From Clostridia bacterium (GTDB lineage: Bacteria > Bacillota > Clostridia > UBA1212), in contig JAGCZO010000157.1 in assembly GCA_017959965.1 (NCBI GenBank), forward strand, positions 1-53,208: a stretch of DNA of 53,208 nt. The letters run 5' to 3'. Each line of letters starts with the position of its first letter. Within the stretch, counting starts at the first letter, position 1. Below are positions 8,808 through 51,489 of this stretch, one piece after another. Both the position numbers and the translations under genes were made by a program. The notes beneath the pieces are model-generated. The model was not told where the DNA came from. It searched no databases and saw only the letters and a program-made list of their open reading frames with translations.

Positions 8808-9875
8808 TCACCGCAATAGAAACATAATGATCATCAAAACTGCCGCGATTATGCCTGCCGAGATGGCGAAATTCTTCAGCCAGCGGAATTTTGACTTTGG
8901 GAACTCACCGACTATCTTGCCGGTCTGTCCGTTGATGGTATAGGTATACGTGTTGCCCCCGTACTTGGCTTTCATCATGTAAACGGGAAGCAGGGCGTAT
9001 TTTGCTTCGGTATCCTTGAGACTGAGATCGTCGCTGACCTTCCTGACGGAGGAGTAACCGGTGACGCTTTTTGAGAAAGCTTTGTTGACTCCGTCCGAGA
9101 CCTTGACTCCCGCTCTGGGCGTGCAGGCCTCCGGGTCGTCATCGTACCTGTCGGCAAGAAAACCGCTGAGATAGCCCGGGGCGAATTCCTCCAGCTGGGA
9201 GTAGTCGTAGGGCTCAAGGAGATCCATGGTGTTGTCGTCCATTTTGATGCTGGCATCAACGGGTATCTTCTTGAAGCCCACCTCGCCGTCCACCGTCACG
9301 TAGTAATACTTGGTCTCGGTGTAGCGGTAGTTAGAGGAGTACCAGGATCTTGTGGTGGTGGTCTCGAAGGTGACCTTGCCGTCGGCGGTGCAGTCGTAGA
9401 GCCAGAAGGGCACGTACAAGCCAATGGCCTTGTCGATGACCACGTCCGTGACCAGCTTTTTTGGAAGGAGCTTTCTCTTTTTCACAAGGTCCTTCCACAT
9501 GTCGGCAAGATCTTTTTTGACGATCTTAAAGGGAATAATGTAGTTCGGCCGCAGCGCTCCCTCCAGGTTTTGATTGATTATTATTTCATTGTCGCAATAG
9601 GGGCAATGGGTCGCGCTGGTGGTCGCGTCGGTGACGATATCGGCTCCGCAGTATTTGCAAGAATACGTCACGGAGCCTGTCAGGTCCTCCTTGACGAATG
9701 AGGCAATGTGATCGCCCCAGTCGAAGGAGGGCTCATCCGATGCGGCGGCGTTTCGTATTGCGAAAAGATCATACCGGTTCCCGCAAGCGGGACACCGAAA
9801 TTTTCCGATGGCGACGTCATAAAGCAATGAAGTGTCGCATGACGGACATTTGAATGATACCAAATTATTCTGCAT
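8808..9875 (-). CDS. Zinc-ribbon membrane protein commonly paired with TPM proteins
   Basis: CPSC/CPAC and CKYC/CPYC pairs, LYVPFWLYD, LLPVY, INGQTGKIVG, C-terminal TM. Confidence 0.75.
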   Translation of the reverse strand: MQNNLVSFKCPSCDTSLLYDVAIGKFRCPACGNRYDLFAIRNAAASDEPSFDWGDHIASFVKEDLTGSVTYSCKYCGADIVTDATTSATHCPYCDNEIIINQNLEGALRPNYIIPFKIVKKDLADMWKDLVKKRKLLPKKLVTDVVIDKAIGLYVPFWLYDCTADGKVTFETTTTRSWYSSNYRYTETKYYYVTVDGEVGFKKIPVDASIKMDDNTMDLLEPYDYSQLEEFAPGYLSGFLADRYDDDPEACTPRAGVKVSDGVNKAFSKSVTGYSSVRKVSDDLSLKDTEAKYALLPVYMMKAKYGGNTYTYTINGQTGKIVGEFPKSKFRWLKNFAISAGIIAAVLMIIMFLLR

Positions 9876-43907: not shown

Positions 43908-43958
43908 GCCTGACCTGCCCGGTTTTTCCAAAAAAACTGCGGGATCAGGCTTTTTTTT
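43908..43958 (+). terminator. Rho-independent terminator after glgB
   Basis: GCCTGA...TCAGGC outer stem followed by T8. Confidence 0.65.
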
Positions 43959-43959
43959 G

Positions 43960-43988
43960 TTGAACGTAAAGGCCGGAAATGGTATAAT
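43960..43988 (+). promoter_or_regulatory. Sigma-A promoter of pfk
   Basis: TTGAAC-17 nt-TATAAT with extended TG. Confidence 0.7.
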
Positions 43989-44052
43989 TTCAAGCGGAAA
44001 TCCAAAGGGAGGAAAACCCGCGCAGCAAACGTGCGCGGGATGTTGGAATGTT

Positions 44053-45297
44053 ATGAAAAAATTGGTTGGCGCAGCGGTTTTCGGACAGTCCGGAGGCCCC
44101 ACATCGGTTATTAATTCCAGCGCGGCAGGCGTGTTTCTGACCGCTCTTGACAGTGAATGCATCACAAAAGTTTACGGCGCGGCTCACGGGATCAGGGGTA
44201 TCCTTGACGAGCAGCTTTATGACATCGGCCTTGAGGACAGGCAGGAGCTCCTTTACCTTAAAAACACCCCTTCGTCCGCACTGGGAAGCGTAAGATATAA
44301 GCTCGCGGACGCGGAAAAGGACGACACGGACTATAAGAGGCTGCTTGAGGTCTTCAAAAAGTACGATATCAGGTATTTCTTCTACAACGGCGGAAACGAT
44401 TCCATGGACACCTGTAACAAGATATCGAAGTTCATGCAGAAATCGGGATACGAGTGCCGGGTCATGGGCGTTCCCAAAACTATCGACAACGACCTCTGGG
44501 GCACCGATCACTGCCCGGGCTTCGGAAGCGCCGCTAAATATATTGCCACGTCCCTCATGGAGGTCTACTGCGACGCCAGAGTTTACGACAAGGGCTGCAT
44601 CATTGTCATCGAGATCATGGGAAGGAACGCGGGCTGGCTGACAGGCGCGGCGGCTCTTGCCAGTGCCAAGGGCGCAGGCCCCGATCTTATTTATCTCCCG
44701 GAGCTTCCCTTCGACAAGGAGAAGTTCATCGAGGACGTGAAGCGCATTTCCAAAGCCAATAACGGAAACTGCATGATAGCCGTTTCCGAAGGCGTGAAAT
44801 ACCCGGACGGCAGATACGTTGCCGACAGCGGCGTAAAAGACAAGTTCGGCCATGCCCAGCTCGGCGGCGTTGCCGGGGCTCTCGGCGCGATCCTCAGGGA
44901 AGAGATCCAGGACTACAGAGTCAGGACCATTGAACTCAGCCTTCTCCAGAGATGCGGAGCCCACTGCGGATCCGGAAGAGACGTTGAGGAAGCCTTCGAG
45001 GCCGGAAAGACCGCAGTCGAGATGGCTGTGTCCGGAAAGACTGATTTCTGCGTCGGCTTTGAGCGCGTTATAAAGAACGGCGAGTACAAGTGCGAGATGA
45101 AGCTCATCCCGCTTTCCGAGATCGCTAATACAGAAAAGAAGGTCCCCAGAGAATGGATCAACGAAGAAGGAAACTTTGTAAACGAAAAATTCGTTGAGTA
45201 TGCTCTTCCTCTCATCCAGGGCGAACCGGACTACTGCCGCGAAGACGGTCTCCCCAGGTTTGCCAGACTCAAAAAGATCCTTGCAAAGGCTAACTGA
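44053..45297 (+). CDS. 6-phosphofructokinase, probably PPi-dependent type
   Basis: GQSGGPT.VIN, GGNDSMD, PKTIDND, MGRNAGW; Asp in GGNDS and the PKTIDND Lys are typical of PPi-PFK. Confidence 0.88.
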   Translation: MKKLVGAAVFGQSGGPTSVINSSAAGVFLTALDSECITKVYGAAHGIRGILDEQLYDIGLEDRQELLYLKNTPSSALGSVRYKLADAEKDDTDYKRLLEVFKKYDIRYFFYNGGNDSMDTCNKISKFMQKSGYECRVMGVPKTIDNDLWGTDHCPGFGSAAKYIATSLMEVYCDARVYDKGCIIVIEIMGRNAGWLTGAAALASAKGAGPDLIYLPELPFDKEKFIEDVKRISKANNGNCMIAVSEGVKYPDGRYVADSGVKDKFGHAQLGGVAGALGAILREEIQDYRVRTIELSLLQRCGAHCGSGRDVEEAFEAGKTAVEMAVSGKTDFCVGFERVIKNGEYKCEMKLIPLSEIANTEKKVPREWINEEGNFVNEKFVEYALPLIQGEPDYCREDGLPRFARLKKILAKAN

Positions 45298-45472: not shown

Positions 45473-45507
45473 AAAAACGGGTGCGTTGCGACAGGATAAG
45501 AGACGAA

Positions 45508-48500
45508 ATGAACAGCAATATGACCATAGATAAACTGAAGGTGGCGAAAAACGGCTCCGTTGAGGTGTACATAAGCGGAGGCGTGTTTGGCTATGACGAC
45601 GCAAAAAAGTTCGCAGCCGCCCAGCTGGGAAATAAAATAGACATGGAAAAGGCCTCGATCCGCATCTCCTGGGGCGAGGAATATATAAAAGCGGTAACGG
45701 ACGACGTTTTAAGAGCAAAGCTCTGGAACACCATCAGGGAGTACGTCTGCGACAAACACCCTGCCTCCTGCGCCATGCTGAGGCTGGAAGGCTCCGCCCA
45801 CAAGATCACGCCTGAGGGCGTTTTCATTTTGGTAAACCCCATGGCGTATACTATTCTGAAGAACGAAAATATTGCCGATGAGATCAGAAAGTTCCTGAAA
45901 ACTCTCTTTAAAAAGACCGTCCCCGTGTCCATACGTGAGGCCGAGGACGTGAAAGCCGGTTCTTCCCGCCGCGGCAGGAAAAAGGAGCAGGTCTATTATT
46001 ACGACGAAGAGGCCTACAACAAGGAGGTCGCCGAGACCATAAAAAACAATAAGGACAAGAGAAAGACCAAGCGGGCGGCGGGCTCCTACTACAGCGACCA
46101 CTATAAAGGAGGCGGTTCGGGAAAGAAGCGCATCCTGACGCCGAAGGACGGGGCGGAGCTTCCGAAGGACACAAAAGGCAACACCATGCTCATTGGCGGT
46201 GAGATCGTTGACGAGCCTGTGAGGATGGATACGATAAATGCGGATATGGGCTTCGTTGCCGTGAAAGGCAGAGTCTTCAAGCTGGAGACGAAGCCTATCA
46301 GAAACAATTCCCGCATAGCCATATTGTACATCACCGACGAGACCTATTCCGTTGCCGCCAAATTCTTTTTCGAGCCCGAGGATGATGCCTTCGTGGAGAA
46401 GCACTTCGCGGCGGGCAGCCATCTGATACTCTACGGGGACATTGCCTACGATAAATATTCAAAGGAGCTCAGCCTTCTGATCAGGAACGCATCCTCCTAT
46501 AAGCCCGAAAAAAGAGTGGACCATGCGGAAAAGAAGAGGGTGGAGCTGCATCTCCATACCACTTTGAGCGCCCTTGACGCCCTGACAAGGCCGAAGGAGC
46601 TCATCAAAAGAGTGACTGAATGGGGCCACAGCGCGATCGCGATCACGGATCACGGCGTGGTGCAGGCATACCCTGACGTGTTCAACGCCGCAAAAGACCT
46701 CAAGAGCGACATAAAGATCATCTACGGAATAGAGTGCTACCTGACCGATTTTCCGGAGGAGACCGATCCCGAGACTTCTAAAAAGTTCCGCACCTGGCAC
46801 TGCATCATACTGGTGAAAGATCTCGTGGGCCTTAAAAACCTTTACAGACTCATCTCCAATTCCAACCTCAGCTACTTCCACAGAAGGCCCAGAATGCCCA
46901 GGTTTGATATAGACGCGAACAGGGAAGGCCTGATCATCGGAAGCGCATGCTCTGAGGGCGAGCTTTACCAGGCGATAGTTGACGGCGCAAGCGATGAAGA
47001 GCTTGAGAAGATCGCATCGTTTTACGACTACCTGGAGATCCAGCCCATAGAGAACAATATCTACCTTGTCCGGGAGGGAAGGGTGGCCTCCGAGCAGGAG
47101 CTTGTAAACATAAACAAGAAGATCCTCGGCCTTGCCGACAGACTGGGCAAGCTCACCGTTGCCACCTGCGACGTTCACTTCCTTGACCCCGAGGATGCGA
47201 TATACCGCGAGGTCATGCAGACCGCCCAAGGGTATAAGGACGCAGCTTTCCAGGCGCCGCTCTACCTCAGAACCACTGAAGAGATGCTGGCGGAGTTTGC
47301 GCACCTGGACGAAAGAGCCTACGAGGTGGTGGTGGAAAACACCAATAAGATCGCGGACATGATCGAGGTGATAAGGCCTGTTCCCAAGGGGACCTATCAG
47401 CCTGCCATAGAAGGGTCCGACGAAGACCTGAGAAGCATGTGCCTCAAAAAAGCTATAGACACCTACGGCGATCCGGTGCCGGAGCACGTAATGGCAAGGC
47501 TGAACAAGGAGCTTGACGCCATTATCTCCAATCACTTTTCGGTGCTCTACATCGCCGCGCAGAAGCTCGTGGCCCACTCCGCGGAGAACGGATACACTGT
47601 GGGCTCAAGAGGCTCTGTGGGATCGTCATTGGCGGCATACATGGCGGGAATAACGGAAGTCAACGCATTGCCTCCCCACTACCGCTGCCCCGAATGCAAA
47701 TACAGTGAATTCTACTTCAATCAGGAGTACGAGGCAGGCTGCGACATGCCCGAAAAGGACTGCCCGAAATGCGGCACAAAGCTCATAAGAGACGGCTTTG
47801 ACATTCCTTTTGAGACGTTTTTGGGATTTAAGGGCGAAAAAACCCCTGATATCGATCTCAATTTCGCCTCCGAGGACCAGGTCAGGGCCCACAAATACTG
47901 CGACGTGCTGTTCGGCGAAAAATACGTTTTCAGAGCCGGAACCATAGCGGGTCTGCAGGACAAGACCGCTATGGGCTATGTCAGGAAATATCTCGAGGTG
48001 ACCGGAAGAGCCGCCAATGAGGCCGAGATGATGAGACTTTCCGCGCCCCTTGAAGGTGTGAAAAAGACAACGGGCCAGCACCCCGGAGGCATCATGGTGG
48101 TGCCCAGGGATAAGGACATACTTGATTTCACTCCTATCCAGCACCCCGCGGACGACGACGGCAAAGGCGTTGTGACCACCCACTTCGACTACCATTTCCT
48201 CCACGACACGATCCTAAAGCTTGACATTCTGGGCCACGACGGCCCGAAGATCGTCAAGATGCTTCACACCTTCACGGGCATTGACCCCATGAAGATCGAC
48301 ATATCCGATCCTGAGGTGCTATCGCTTTTCGTGTCCCCGGAGCCCCTTAATGCCGACCAGGCCCTTCTCAACGAGCCTCTCGAAACCGGCAGCCTCGGCA
48401 TCCCCGAATTCGGAACCTCTTTTGCCATTGGCCTCCTGAAGAGCACAAAACCTAAGACAGTATCCGATCTGGTCAGGATCTCAGGCCTTTCCCACGGAAC

Positions 48501-49317
48501 CAACGTCTGGCAGGACAACGCCTCCGAGCTTATCGAAAACAACGTCGCCACGTTGTCGGAGTGCATCTGCTGCCGCGACGATATCATGATATATCTCATC
48601 AAAATGGGCGTTGAAAAGGAGATCGCCTTCAACGTCATGGAAGCGGTAAGAAAGGGAAAGGTCGCCTCCGGCAAGTGCCCCGAATGGCCCAAATGGAAGG
48701 AGGAACTCAAGGCTCACAACGTGCCCGACTGGTACCTCGGCTCCTGCGAAAAGATACAGTACATGTTCCCGAAGGCCCATGCCGTTGCTTACGTGCTTCT
48801 TTCCGTGCGAATGGCCTGGTACAAGATATACGAGCCCCTTGCCTATTACGCAACCCGGTTCACCCTGAAGCTGGAGTTCTTTGAAGGCCACAATATGATC
48901 AACGGCATCGACAAGGCGAAGCTTGCCCAGAAGGATCTGAAGCAGAAGGGCACCAGGGAAAAGCTGTCCAAGAAGGAAGAGGACCTGCTGGTGATCTACG
49001 AGCAGATCGTTGAAATGTACGCAAGGCACATAGAATTTCTGCCCGTTGACCTGTACAAGTCAAAAGCGGCCATGTTCGTGCCCGAGGACGGTAAGCTGAG
49101 GCCTCCCTTCTGCGCTCTTCAGGGCGTCGGCATCACAGCCGGCGAGTCGCTTGAAAAGGCCGCGTCCACGGGCGAGGAATTCAGCAGTATCGAAGACGTA
49201 AGGAACAGGGCAAAGGTGAACAAGACAGTTATCGAAGTCCTGAGGGCCAACGGAGTTCTGACCGGCCTTCCGGAGGACGACGCGCTCACCTTCTTTGACT
49301 GGGCAGACAAAAAATAA
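45508..49317 (+). CDS. polC: DNA polymerase III PolC-type alpha subunit lacking the 3'-5' exonuclease insertion
   Basis: OB fold, PHP (ELHLHT, ITDHG, TCDVH), GSRGSVGSS, CPEC/CPKC Zn finger, PDIDLNF, TTGQHPGG, KLDILGHD, YMFPKAHA; start uncertain (45481/45508/45520). Confidence 0.95.
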   Translation: MNSNMTIDKLKVAKNGSVEVYISGGVFGYDDAKKFAAAQLGNKIDMEKASIRISWGEEYIKAVTDDVLRAKLWNTIREYVCDKHPASCAMLRLEGSAHKITPEGVFILVNPMAYTILKNENIADEIRKFLKTLFKKTVPVSIREAEDVKAGSSRRGRKKEQVYYYDEEAYNKEVAETIKNNKDKRKTKRAAGSYYSDHYKGGGSGKKRILTPKDGAELPKDTKGNTMLIGGEIVDEPVRMDTINADMGFVAVKGRVFKLETKPIRNNSRIAILYITDETYSVAAKFFFEPEDDAFVEKHFAAGSHLILYGDIAYDKYSKELSLLIRNASSYKPEKRVDHAEKKRVELHLHTTLSALDALTRPKELIKRVTEWGHSAIAITDHGVVQAYPDVFNAAKDLKSDIKIIYGIECYLTDFPEETDPETSKKFRTWHCIILVKDLVGLKNLYRLISNSNLSYFHRRPRMPRFDIDANREGLIIGSACSEGELYQAIVDGASDEELEKIASFYDYLEIQPIENNIYLVREGRVASEQELVNINKKILGLADRLGKLTVATCDVHFLDPEDAIYREVMQTAQGYKDAAFQAPLYLRTTEEMLAEFAHLDERAYEVVVENTNKIADMIEVIRPVPKGTYQPAIEGSDEDLRSMCLKKAIDTYGDPVPEHVMARLNKELDAIISNHFSVLYIAAQKLVAHSAENGYTVGSRGSVGSSLAAYMAGITEVNALPPHYRCPECKYSEFYFNQEYEAGCDMPEKDCPKCGTKLIRDGFDIPFETFLGFKGEKTPDIDLNFASEDQVRAHKYCDVLFGEKYVFRAGTIAGLQDKTAMGYVRKYLEVTGRAANEAEMMRLSAPLEGVKKTTGQHPGGIMVVPRDKDILDFTPIQHPADDDGKGVVTTHFDYHFLHDTILKLDILGHDGPKIVKMLHTFTGIDPMKIDISDPEVLSLFVSPEPLNADQALLNEPLETGSLGIPEFGTSFAIGLLKSTKPKTVSDLVRISGLSHGTNVWQDNASELIENNVATLSECICCRDDIMIYLIKMGVEKEIAFNVMEAVRKGKVASGKCPEWPKWKEELKAHNVPDWYLGSCEKIQYMFPKAHAVAYVLLSVRMAWYKIYEPLAYYATRFTLKLEFFEGHNMINGIDKAKLAQKDLKQKGTREKLSKKEEDLLVIYEQIVEMYARHIEFLPVDLYKSKAAMFVPEDGKLRPPFCALQGVGITAGESLEKAASTGEEFSSIEDVRNRAKVNKTVIEVLRANGVLTGLPEDDALTFFDWADKK

Positions 49318-49536: not shown

Positions 49537-50607
49537 ATGAAAAACGAGAAAAAATATGTTCCGGAAGGATTTGAAGTATCGCCGGGTCAGAAATTCTACA
49601 GAATACCCGACGTTCATTTTGATCTTTACGGGGTGTTTTACGATGAGAAGGCGGGACGTTTTCTCAGAATGCCCTCCGACGCCGCGGCAGCCGTGAGCCC
49701 CGCTGTTGAGGAGCTTAACAGAAACACCGCAGGGGGCAGGCTCAGATTCACTACCGACGCTACGAGACTTTCCGTTTCCATGAGATGCGGCAGCCTCGCT
49801 TCAATGAACCATATGCCTCTCTCCGGTACCCACGGCTTTTCTCTTATCGAGGACGACGGCGACAGCCACTCCTTTGCTGCGGCTTTCATGCCCGGTCACT
49901 ACGCAAATCTTAAGGAGTCGGTCTGTCAGGACGGCTATTACGCCGAAAAGCCGCTGCTTGGCGGCAAGATGCGCTCATACACCTTGTTTTTCCCTCTTTT
50001 TACGGACGTACGCGAACTCACCATAGGCATTCCGGAGGAGGCGACTCTTACCAACGGCCCCGCCTACAGGCCCGTGAAGCCCGTGGTCTTCTATGGCTCT
50101 TCCATTACCCACGGCGGATGTGCGTCAAGGCCGGACAACATGTACGAGGGATACCTTTCGAAGTGGTTTGACGTTGACTTTATAAACCTGGGCTTTTCCG
50201 GGTCCGCATTGGCGGAGGTCCCCATGGCCGAATATCTCGCCGGCCTTGACCCTTCTGTTTTCGTATACGACTACGATTACAACGCCCCCAACGCAGAATT
50301 CCTTGAGAAGACACACTACCGTCTTTACCGCATTTTCAGGGAAAAACATCCGGACACCCCGATCATTGTCATTTCAAATCCGGACTACGATACGGACCTT
50401 TCTTCGGAGGACAGGCTCAGGGTGATAAAGAAAACCGTGGCATTGGCGAGAAAAAGCGGAGACAAAAACCTTGCGTTTATAAACGGAAAGAAGTTGTTCG
50501 GCAAGTCGGACAGAGAAAACTGCACCGTGGACATGACGCATCCCAATGACCTTGGCATTTACAAGATGGCGCAAGAGATCGCCAAGGCGCTCAGAAGGTT
50601 TATTTGA
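49537..50607 (+). CDS. SGNH/GDSL hydrolase with N-terminal accessory domain
   Basis: TAGGRLRF.TD, FYGSSITHGG, NLGFSG, DYDYN, DMTHPNDLG. Confidence 0.83.
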   Translation: MKNEKKYVPEGFEVSPGQKFYRIPDVHFDLYGVFYDEKAGRFLRMPSDAAAAVSPAVEELNRNTAGGRLRFTTDATRLSVSMRCGSLASMNHMPLSGTHGFSLIEDDGDSHSFAAAFMPGHYANLKESVCQDGYYAEKPLLGGKMRSYTLFFPLFTDVRELTIGIPEEATLTNGPAYRPVKPVVFYGSSITHGGCASRPDNMYEGYLSKWFDVDFINLGFSGSALAEVPMAEYLAGLDPSVFVYDYDYNAPNAEFLEKTHYRLYRIFREKHPDTPIIVISNPDYDTDLSSEDRLRVIKKTVALARKSGDKNLAFINGKKLFGKSDRENCTVDMTHPNDLGIYKMAQEIAKALRRFI

Positions 50608-50631: not shown

Positions 50632-51489
50632 ATGATAATTCTTGACGGAGCAATGGGAACGACTCTCTGGGATATCGCTCAGAGGAACGGCGCGGAGAAA
50701 GTCCCGGTGTGGCGCTACAATATCGAGCATCCCGAATTTGTCGCGGAGATTACGAGGCGTTATATCGATGCCGGCGCAGACTTTGTGCAGGCAAATACCT
50801 TCGGCGCCAACAGACCCGCGGTTAAAAAAAGCTCGAAATACGACGTGAAGGACGTCGTGGCCGCCGGAATGAGGATCGCAAGGGAAACCGCCGCCGGAAA
50901 AGACGTGAAGATCTTCCTCAGCTCCGGACCGCTTATGGAGATGCTTGAACCTTACGGAGACCTTGAGGAGGACGAGTGCAGGGAAATATACGGAGAAATA
51001 TTCGACGCCGCGATGCCCTACAAGCCGGACGCGATCCTTCTGGAAACGTTTATAGACCTGGGAATGATGCGGGTCGCCGCTGAAAGGGCAATGGAAACGG
51101 ACATACCCGTGTTCTGCTCCATGTCCTTCGAAAAGTCAGGCAGGACTATGTTCGGAAACTCTGTAGAAGACGTTGTCGGTACCCTTGAGCCTCTCGGAAT
51201 AACAGCCGTTGGTCTCAACTGCTCTTTGGGCCCGGATTCCGCTGTGCCGATAATAAAAGATTTTTCCGGGAAAACGTCGCTGCCCCTTATCTTCAAACCG
51301 AACGCCGGTCTTCCGGTGACGACCGAAGGTGCCAAAATGACATCCGCCGTGGGGCCGAAGGAATTTGCCGAGGCAGTCTCCGCCGCTTTTCCATACGTGA
51401 CTTACGTTGGCGGATGCTGCGGAAGCGATTGGCGTTACGTTGAAGCCATAAAAGAAAAACTCCTTGAAAAAGGATCCTTATATTTATAA
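50632..51489 (+). CDS. Stand-alone homocysteine S-methyltransferase domain protein
   Basis: ILDGAMGT, NTFGAN, LET, GLNCS, KPNAGLP, GGCCG. Confidence 0.87.
   Translation: MIILDGAMGTTLWDIAQRNGAEKVPVWRYNIEHPEFVAEITRRYIDAGADFVQANTFGANRPAVKKSSKYDVKDVVAAGMRIARETAAGKDVKIFLSSGPLMEMLEPYGDLEEDECREIYGEIFDAAMPYKPDAILLETFIDLGMMRVAAERAMETDIPVFCSMSFEKSGRTMFGNSVEDVVGTLEPLGITAVGLNCSLGPDSAVPIIKDFSGKTSLPLIFKPNAGLPVTTEGAKMTSAVGPKEFAEAVSAAFPYVTYVGGCCGSDWRYVEAIKEKLLEKGSLYL

Follow-up and report, generated by a model that had tools for sequence, protein, structure and literature searches.

A PolC-type DNA polymerase III without the exonuclease insert and with a complete PHP metal site in an uncultured lineage of Clostridia

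The window analyzed here, a stretch of 53,208 nucleotides from a Clostridia bacterium (contig JAGCZO010000157.1), carries a polC gene whose product departs from the canonical architecture at a single point: the DEDDh exonuclease (Exo) domain is absent, in frame, and the PHP domain into which it is normally inserted retains all nine of its metal ligands. The sequence places this protein in a known natural subclass of exo-less PolCs, and we consider it probable that the PHP domain of this PolC is what removes 3′ mismatches.

Results

PolC lacks the exonuclease insert

The open frame of polC extends from 45481 to 49317 on the forward strand, with a GTG start upstream, and encodes 1278 aa without a stop in 1278 codons; residue numbers are counted from this GTG. 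Translation probably begins at ATG 45508, which is preceded by a weak purine-rich stretch and gives a protein of the same length as the best database match (P0002, 1269 aa). The protein reached 1369.2 bits on the NCBIfam PolC model NF001688 (cut-off, 873) and 1248.5 bits on the PolC model TIGR01405 (cut-off, 1043.45). Its Pfam domains follow the order of PolC, namely, an OB fold N-terminal to PHP, then the Pol3 core, and then the helix-hairpin-helix (HhH) region (Table 1), the OB-fold match to PF01336 being slightly below the cut-off (25.5 versus 27 bits). The PHP match (PF02811) spans residues 355 to 515, with an E value of 2.8e-30. Within the polymerase core we found a Cys4 zinc finger (CPEC at 736 and CPKC at 761) and two acidic motifs, PDIDLNF (789 to 795) and LDILGHD (914 to 920), which may hold the catalytic aspartates of the palm. 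The sole PolC of this genome looks intact and functional.

The hallmark of a typical PolC, a DEDDh 3′-5′ exonuclease inserted in the PHP domain, is missing. The motif YGIECYLTD (residues 415 to 423, nt 46723 to 46749) is joined to WHCIILVK (residues 439 to 446, nt 46795 to 46818) by the 15 residues FPEETDPETSKKFRT. Model NF001688 matched the protein in two stretches, the second of which pairs residue 431 with profile position 607 of 1445, and profile positions ~417 to 606 remained without a match. When compared to the full-length PolC structure 9qpc, residues 275 to 423 aligned with chain positions 282 to 430 and residues 431 to 636 with positions 632 to 840, a longer alignment pairing residues 431 to 1274 with positions 632 to 1473. 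Since the alignment splits at 423/431, chain positions 431 to 631 of 9qpc, about 200 residues, have no counterpart in the present PolC. The structure 3f2b_A aligned in a single stretch (residues 244 to 1273 with chain positions 4 to 1031; E value, 2e-294), and this end-to-end match establishes the PolC fold. A Pfam search down to an E value of ≤1 detected no RNase_T domain in the PolC open reading frame, and relocation of the Exo domain within the frame is thereby ruled out.

These results agree with an original prediction made from the letters of the window alone, which had described about 15 residues between the two motifs (there are exactly 15), a protein of about 1270 aa (1269 from the ATG, 1278 from the GTG), and an exonuclease insert missing with respect to typical PolC, as now borne out by Pfam, by the split NF001688 match, and by the unmatched residues of 9qpc. 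An RNase_T domain found by HMM elsewhere in the frame had been named as a finding that would overturn it, and the search returned none.

Table 1. Features of the polC gene and its product (positions in the window; residues counted from GTG 45481)
Feature	Position	Strand	Details
polC, exo-less form (PolC-type DNA polymerase III alpha)	45508..49317	+	1269 aa from ATG 45508
OB fold, N-terminal to PHP (PolC-specific order)	46255..46479	+	residues 259-333; PF01336 E 1.2e-05
PHP, first part	46543..46749	+	residues 355-423; ligands H357, H359, D366, H391, E418
15-residue linker FPEETDPETSKKFRT	46750..46794	+	residues 424-438; site of the canonical DEDDh exonuclease (~200 aa)
PHP, second part	46795..47400	+	residues 439 to ~640; ligands H440, C490, D564, H566
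Polymerase core, palm/thumb + fingers	47425..48669	+	PF07733 residues 649-844 + second stretch; PF17657 925-1063
Tandem helix-hairpin-helix	49030..49269	+	residues 1184-1263; PF14579 (HHH_6) E 2.1e-10

The junction is found in independent contigs and throughout the order

The source genome (G000) is a metagenome-assembled genome (MAG), 96.6% complete, fragmented into 235 contigs and with 8.35% contamination, properties that speak for an assembly collapse, a pseudogene, or a contaminant, in which case the real polC would carry the exonuclease. We regard such an artefact as extremely improbable, the frame being free of stops over its whole length. In addition, contigs of public sequencing runs, aligned on positions 46300 to 47300, crossed the junction without indels in three runs from three studies, one of which may be the source sample itself. 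A 1682-nt contig of run X1 (record 1) spans the whole interval with 0 gaps and 3 differing letters, a 1154-nt contig of run X3 (record 9) spans 46414 to 47300 with 0 gaps and 6 differing letters, and a 364-nt contig of run X6 (record 26) spans 46539 to 46902 with 0 gaps and 4 differing letters. The original prediction had called for the junction to be verified in reads; the contigs assembled from these runs agree with it.

A search of the MAG with PF07733 matched only the present PolC and one DnaE, which rules out a second polC equipped with the exonuclease, another point on which verification had been proposed; the lack of a second PolC also argues against an artefact.

The same architecture was found in relatives. 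In the family, the NF001688 profile is split at ~406-416/605-608 in 12 of 12 genomes from three genera, in each case inside a single open frame (1278 to 1335 aa). A PolC match at an E value of ≤1e-100 was obtained from 45 of the 46 genomes of the order; the best match begins at profile position 597 to 609 in 44 of these and, where the contig is cut in one genome, at 776. In the 46th genome (G013), PolC lies at a contig end and matches profile positions 27 to 408 and then 607 to 708. All 46 genomes thus point the same way, toward an exo-less PolC. Searching protein clusters with PolC residues 340 to 700 showed that, among the best 120 of 7993 scored candidates, 108 are without PF00929 and 12 have it; organism names among the best matches include "Clostridia bacterium" and "Ruminococcaceae bacterium." When the present PolC (P0001) was aligned with these 120 homologues by MAFFT (121 sequences in total), linkers measured 13 to 26 aa in the 109 exo-less sequences (P0001 included) and inserts measured 204 to 253 aa in the 12 exo+ sequences. 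An artefact would fit neither the architecture shared across the family and the order nor the exo-less majority of these clusters, and assembly collapse is ruled out by the bridging contigs together with the family- and order-wide architecture.

Apart from the bridging contigs, a single contig of run X5 showed a 69-nt "skip" joint at 46950 to 47020 with just 29 letters on its shorter side. This contig was taken as a conserved PolC segment of another organism.

Exo-less PolCs occur at many places in the PolC tree

We searched a library of representatives clustered at 50% identity with PolC residues 340 to 1278 and retrieved 150 proteins, giving 151 with P0001. After 18 sequences of <1100 aa were dropped, 133 were left, 24 exo-less and 109 exo+, and unrooted trees were built from 895 columns from which the linker and the insert were left out. 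On both the FastTree tree and the quick IQ-TREE tree, the Exo state requires 17 changes, and well-supported branches force at least 13 (FastTree) or at least 14 (quick IQ-TREE) of them. Forcing all exo-less sequences into one clade made the tree 1256.5 log-likelihood units worse (p-AU, 1.6e-61), and a single exo-less clade was rejected.

Because the trees are unrooted, the change counts do not decide between loss and gain. The simpler reading of the scattered distribution is that one homologous insert was lost repeatedly. Of the claim of a clean in-frame domain loss, the absence in frame was confirmed, while loss as the direction of change is what the scatter over the tree suggests.

In the same 133 sequences, the PHP motif described below is intact in 23 of the 24 exo-less representatives versus 69 of the 109 exo+ ones. 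These raw counts did not pass a test on independent pairs: among 13 such pairs there was no difference in 10 to 12 and an opposite difference in 1 to 3 (p, 0.25 to 1), and a statistical link between the exo-less state and an intact PHP motif was dropped. The exo+ neighbors of exo-less PolCs likewise retain the motif, and it seems a fair statement that Exo loss took place on PHP-intact backgrounds.

The PHP metal site is complete in both PolC and DnaE

A PHP domain counts as active if it displays the nine-residue motif HHDHEH[C/H]DH (PMC12926913). The ligands of the present PolC (Table 1) read HHDHEHCDH and match this motif at all nine positions, in line with the earlier claim that every PHP ligand is present. 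In the alignment of 121 sequences (P0001 and the best 120 of 7993 scored candidates), the motif is kept in 120. The lone deviant is an exo-less sequence reading HHDREHCDH, so that the site is intact in 108 of the 109 exo-less close homologues.

The single DnaE of the genome is encoded at L002:610-3774, in a frame that is open at the 3′ end of the locus. It scored 1597 bits on NF005298 (cut-off, 1260), and its PHP ligands (H7, H9, D16, H41, E66, H89, C139, D207, and H209) also read HHDHEHCDH. By this score and this intact motif, the protein would be the DnaE1-type partner of PolC; DnaE3s are described as lacking the PHP motif (PMC3919608). The PHP domains of PolC and DnaE of this genome align without a gap through the linker, and the loop of the exo-less PolC is thus exactly as long as that of DnaE.

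Taken together, these features suggest how the enzyme could proofread. A loop of 15 residues closes the PHP domain where the DEDDh exonuclease is missing, the replication system consists of PolC and a DnaE1-type polymerase, each with the complete metal site HHDHEHCDH, and the PHP domain itself would remove 3′ mismatches by a metal-dependent 3′-5′ exonuclease activity. There are precedents in DnaE-type enzymes, since the alpha subunit of Thermus Pol III has a PHP-based 3′-5′ exonuclease activity. M. tuberculosis DnaE1 is described as proofreading by means of its PHP domain (PMC5636811), and the survey of Timinskas et al. raised PHP proofreading as possibly widespread, the site being conserved in both PolC and the DnaE1 of Clostridia (PMC3919608). 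In the full-text literature searched, we found no biochemical demonstration of proofreading by the PHP domain of any PolC, natural exo-less PolCs included. Genetic data come from C. thermocellum PolC, in which the substitution C669Y at the PHP metal cysteine, corresponding to C490 here, causes an ~30-fold mutator phenotype (bioRxiv 10.1101/2021.07.30.454558, preprint). This effect could be structural, through destabilization of the protein, and C. thermocellum PolC also has an Exo domain.

An alternative is that the present PolC does not proofread and that DnaE1, with its intact PHP domain, is the main high-fidelity replicase, leaving PolC a narrower or auxiliary part. Such a DnaE1-centered role was raised for Clostridia by Timinskas et al., in whose survey some Clostridia have DnaE1 alone and the exo-less PolCs all occur in PolC+DnaE1 systems (PMC3919608), and the genome does encode a full DnaE1-like DnaE with HHDHEHCDH. 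Moreover, in one exo-less representative, P0240, the PHP motif is degenerate (HRSLE-ADQ), and some PolC therefore exists without a recognizable proofreader. We nevertheless consider this alternative unlikely. All 46 genomes of the order have preserved an open frame for polC, and the retention of the PHP motif in nearly all exo-less PolCs, representatives and close homologues alike, indicates selection on the site; the mutator phenotype of the C. thermocellum cysteine mutant also speaks against it.

A stand-alone DEDDh exonuclease is not a general feature of the order

In E. coli, proofreading is supplied to DnaE in trans by epsilon. A stand-alone DEDDh exonuclease could act in the same manner on the exo-less PolC, and the genome contains one candidate, a 281-aa protein (G000:C164, L001:1492-2337), as the search for such proteins advised in the original prediction revealed. 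It is the only RNase_T protein of the genome, its sequence shows D/E, D, and H..D motifs, and a single matching protein is found in all seven other genomes of the genus. Yet its best match is KapD, at 60.3 bits versus a cut-off of 169, and it remains below every curated cut-off; on the DnaQ model TIGR00573 it obtained 32 bits versus 71.5 and so does not score as a DnaQ. Its gene adjoins a tsaD-like gene rather than replication genes, and B. subtilis KapD, which is tied to sporulation and RNA, is not known to act in replication.

A sister genus (g2) gives further support to a partner in trans. Each of its two genomes has two RNase_T matches, one of which is a DnaQ-like protein of 183 to 184 aa that exceeded the cut-off of TIGR00573 (75.8 versus 71.5 bits) and matched the exonuclease portion of the PolC profile with an E value of 2.9e-32. 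The gene sits between an alpha/beta hydrolase gene and a RelA/SpoT-like gene. As a general partner it was ruled out, since neither G000 nor most of the order has it.

Across the order, stand-alone DEDDh proteins do not regularly accompany exo-less PolC. RNase_T was detected in 17 of 46 genomes, and the 29 genomes without it are all exo-less in PolC; in genus g3 it was found in neither of two genomes, one of them 95% complete in 20 contigs. The same search was positive in 10 to 11 of 14 control genomes. Among the 24 high-quality genomes of the order, 9 have an RNase_T protein and 15 have none, indicating that a DnaQ acting in trans is not the general answer. A DEDDh helper may be possible in the present genus, with one such protein in all its genomes, but proofreading by this candidate seems to us quite improbable.

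The original prediction had left the choice between the PHP domain and a trans-acting DnaQ-like protein. The first is now favored and the second did not hold as a general feature, because the sole DEDDh protein encoded apart from PolC bears a weak likeness to KapD and 29 of the 46 genomes are without RNase_T. Our best inference is accordingly proofreading by the PHP domain, whose exonuclease activity in the present PolC would account for it better than a DnaQ-like protein in trans.

Discussion

The original prediction had supposed that exo-less PolCs might have been noted in comparative surveys, and they were. In the survey of Timinskas, Balvociute, Timinskas and Venclovas (Nucleic Acids Res 2014, PMC3919608), the exo-less forms account for 6% of PolCs, from Clostridia and Negativicutes and with one extra copy in Thermotogae, and 16% of the PolCs in PolC+DnaE1 systems; they are reported there to conserve the PHP site. 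The present PolC shows all the defining features of this subclass. It shares with its members the lack of the Exo insert, the conserved PHP site, the DnaE1-type partner, and the clostridial host, and differs in nothing essential, the present case representing a further uncultured gut lineage and a whole order. It is a real and ordinary member of a variant that has been in print since 2014 and is common in metagenomes. As a discovery, it carries little weight, the architecture having been published in 2014; the scattered distribution over the tree and a linker as long as the DnaE loop are small additions to what was known of the variant.

Compared to canonical PolCs (9qpc; B. subtilis, S. aureus), the protein has the same OB-PHP-Pol3-HhH order, but a short linker replaces ~200 residues and the length is 1269 to 1278 aa instead of ~1430 to 1470 aa. 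It resembles the G. kaustophilus PolC structure 3f2b, which is without the Exo domain (PMC3919608). In this delta-Exo construct (3f2b/3f2c/3f2d), an artificial linker occupies the site of the natural 15-residue linker; the construct was engineered for crystallization, whereas the present deletion is natural and conserved in its lineage. The present PolC has the same nine-residue motif as DnaE1 of M. tuberculosis and the alpha subunit of Thermus Pol III, the difference being that the activity resides in DnaE-type enzymes in those cases and would reside in a PolC here.

Exo-less PolCs offer a handy natural test of proofreading by the PHP domain of PolC, since they have no DEDDh activity to mask that of PHP. 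It is a real though tentative possibility that the whole order replicates its DNA without a DnaQ-type proofreader, Exo having been shed repeatedly, nearly always from PolCs with an intact PHP site, and PolC's and DnaE1's PHP domains alone giving fidelity. If this were true, the PHP domain, and not the DEDDh insert, would be the primary or a sufficient proofreader of clostridial PolCs. The recurrent, scattered loss of Exo and the many DnaQ-less relatives strengthen the case that PHP proofreading may be enough for a Firmicutes replisome, which would have a bearing on PolC-targeted antibiotics and on the mutation rates of gut Clostridia.

Genomic setting and metagenomic depth of polC

The exo-less polC of the window does not lie in the classic polC-nusA-infB neighborhood, and its actual neighbors are listed in the table. 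For the 356-aa ORF, no NCBIfam match at an E value of ≤1e-5 was found.

Contig depth, summed over the gut metagenome runs, showed two narrow peaks within polC: one at window positions 46606-46673, around the ITDHG motif, and one at 47014-47047, in another conserved part of PHP. Since many short contigs with unlike flanks terminate at these two stretches, the peaks appear to represent conserved parts of PolC from other organisms.

Features near polC and stand-alone exonuclease genes
Feature	Location	Strand	Remark
PPi-dependent phosphofructokinase	window 43957-45297		neighbor of polC
356-aa ORF	window 49537-50607	+	immediately downstream of polC
Homocysteine S-methyltransferase domain protein	window 50632-51489		neighbor of polC
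438-aa protein			neighbor of polC; weak match to acyltransferase region
Stand-alone DEDDh exonuclease, 281 aa	L001:1492-2337 (G000:C164, about 9016-9861)		source genome
DnaQ-like exonuclease, 183-184 aa	L006:1220-1774 and L005:893-1444		sister genus g2, two genomes

Stand-alone exonucleases

The DEDDh protein of the source genome has a counterpart in all seven other genomes of the genus (one match each), in open frames of 287 to 508 aa. It is weakly KapD-like, carries a long C-terminal tail rich in lysine and arginine, and is encoded immediately downstream of a tsaD-like gene.

In both genomes of the sister genus g2 that encode the DnaQ-like exonuclease, PolC is exo-less, and the exonuclease bears a strong resemblance to the Exo segment of PolC (E value of 2.9e-32 to PolC profile positions 420-587). 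On one side of its gene lies an alpha/beta hydrolase gene and on the other a gene for a RelA/SpoT-like small alarmone synthetase, with identical placement in the two genomes.

Divergent PolC homologs

Among exo+ PolCs, P0233 and P0248 harbor an oversized insert of 405 to 407 aa at the Exo position, while P0031 has a 253-aa insert with a repeated segment visible within the Exo domain; these inserts may have arisen by tandem duplication or through errors in assembly.

The exo-less P0240 from the representative library (1,178 aa, linker of 9 residues) has a degenerate PHP motif, HRSLE-ADQ in place of HHDHEHCDH, and the motif of its exo+ sister P0163 is degraded as well (HHDGENCNK). P0240 may be either a flawed gene call or a PolC without a recognizable proofreader.
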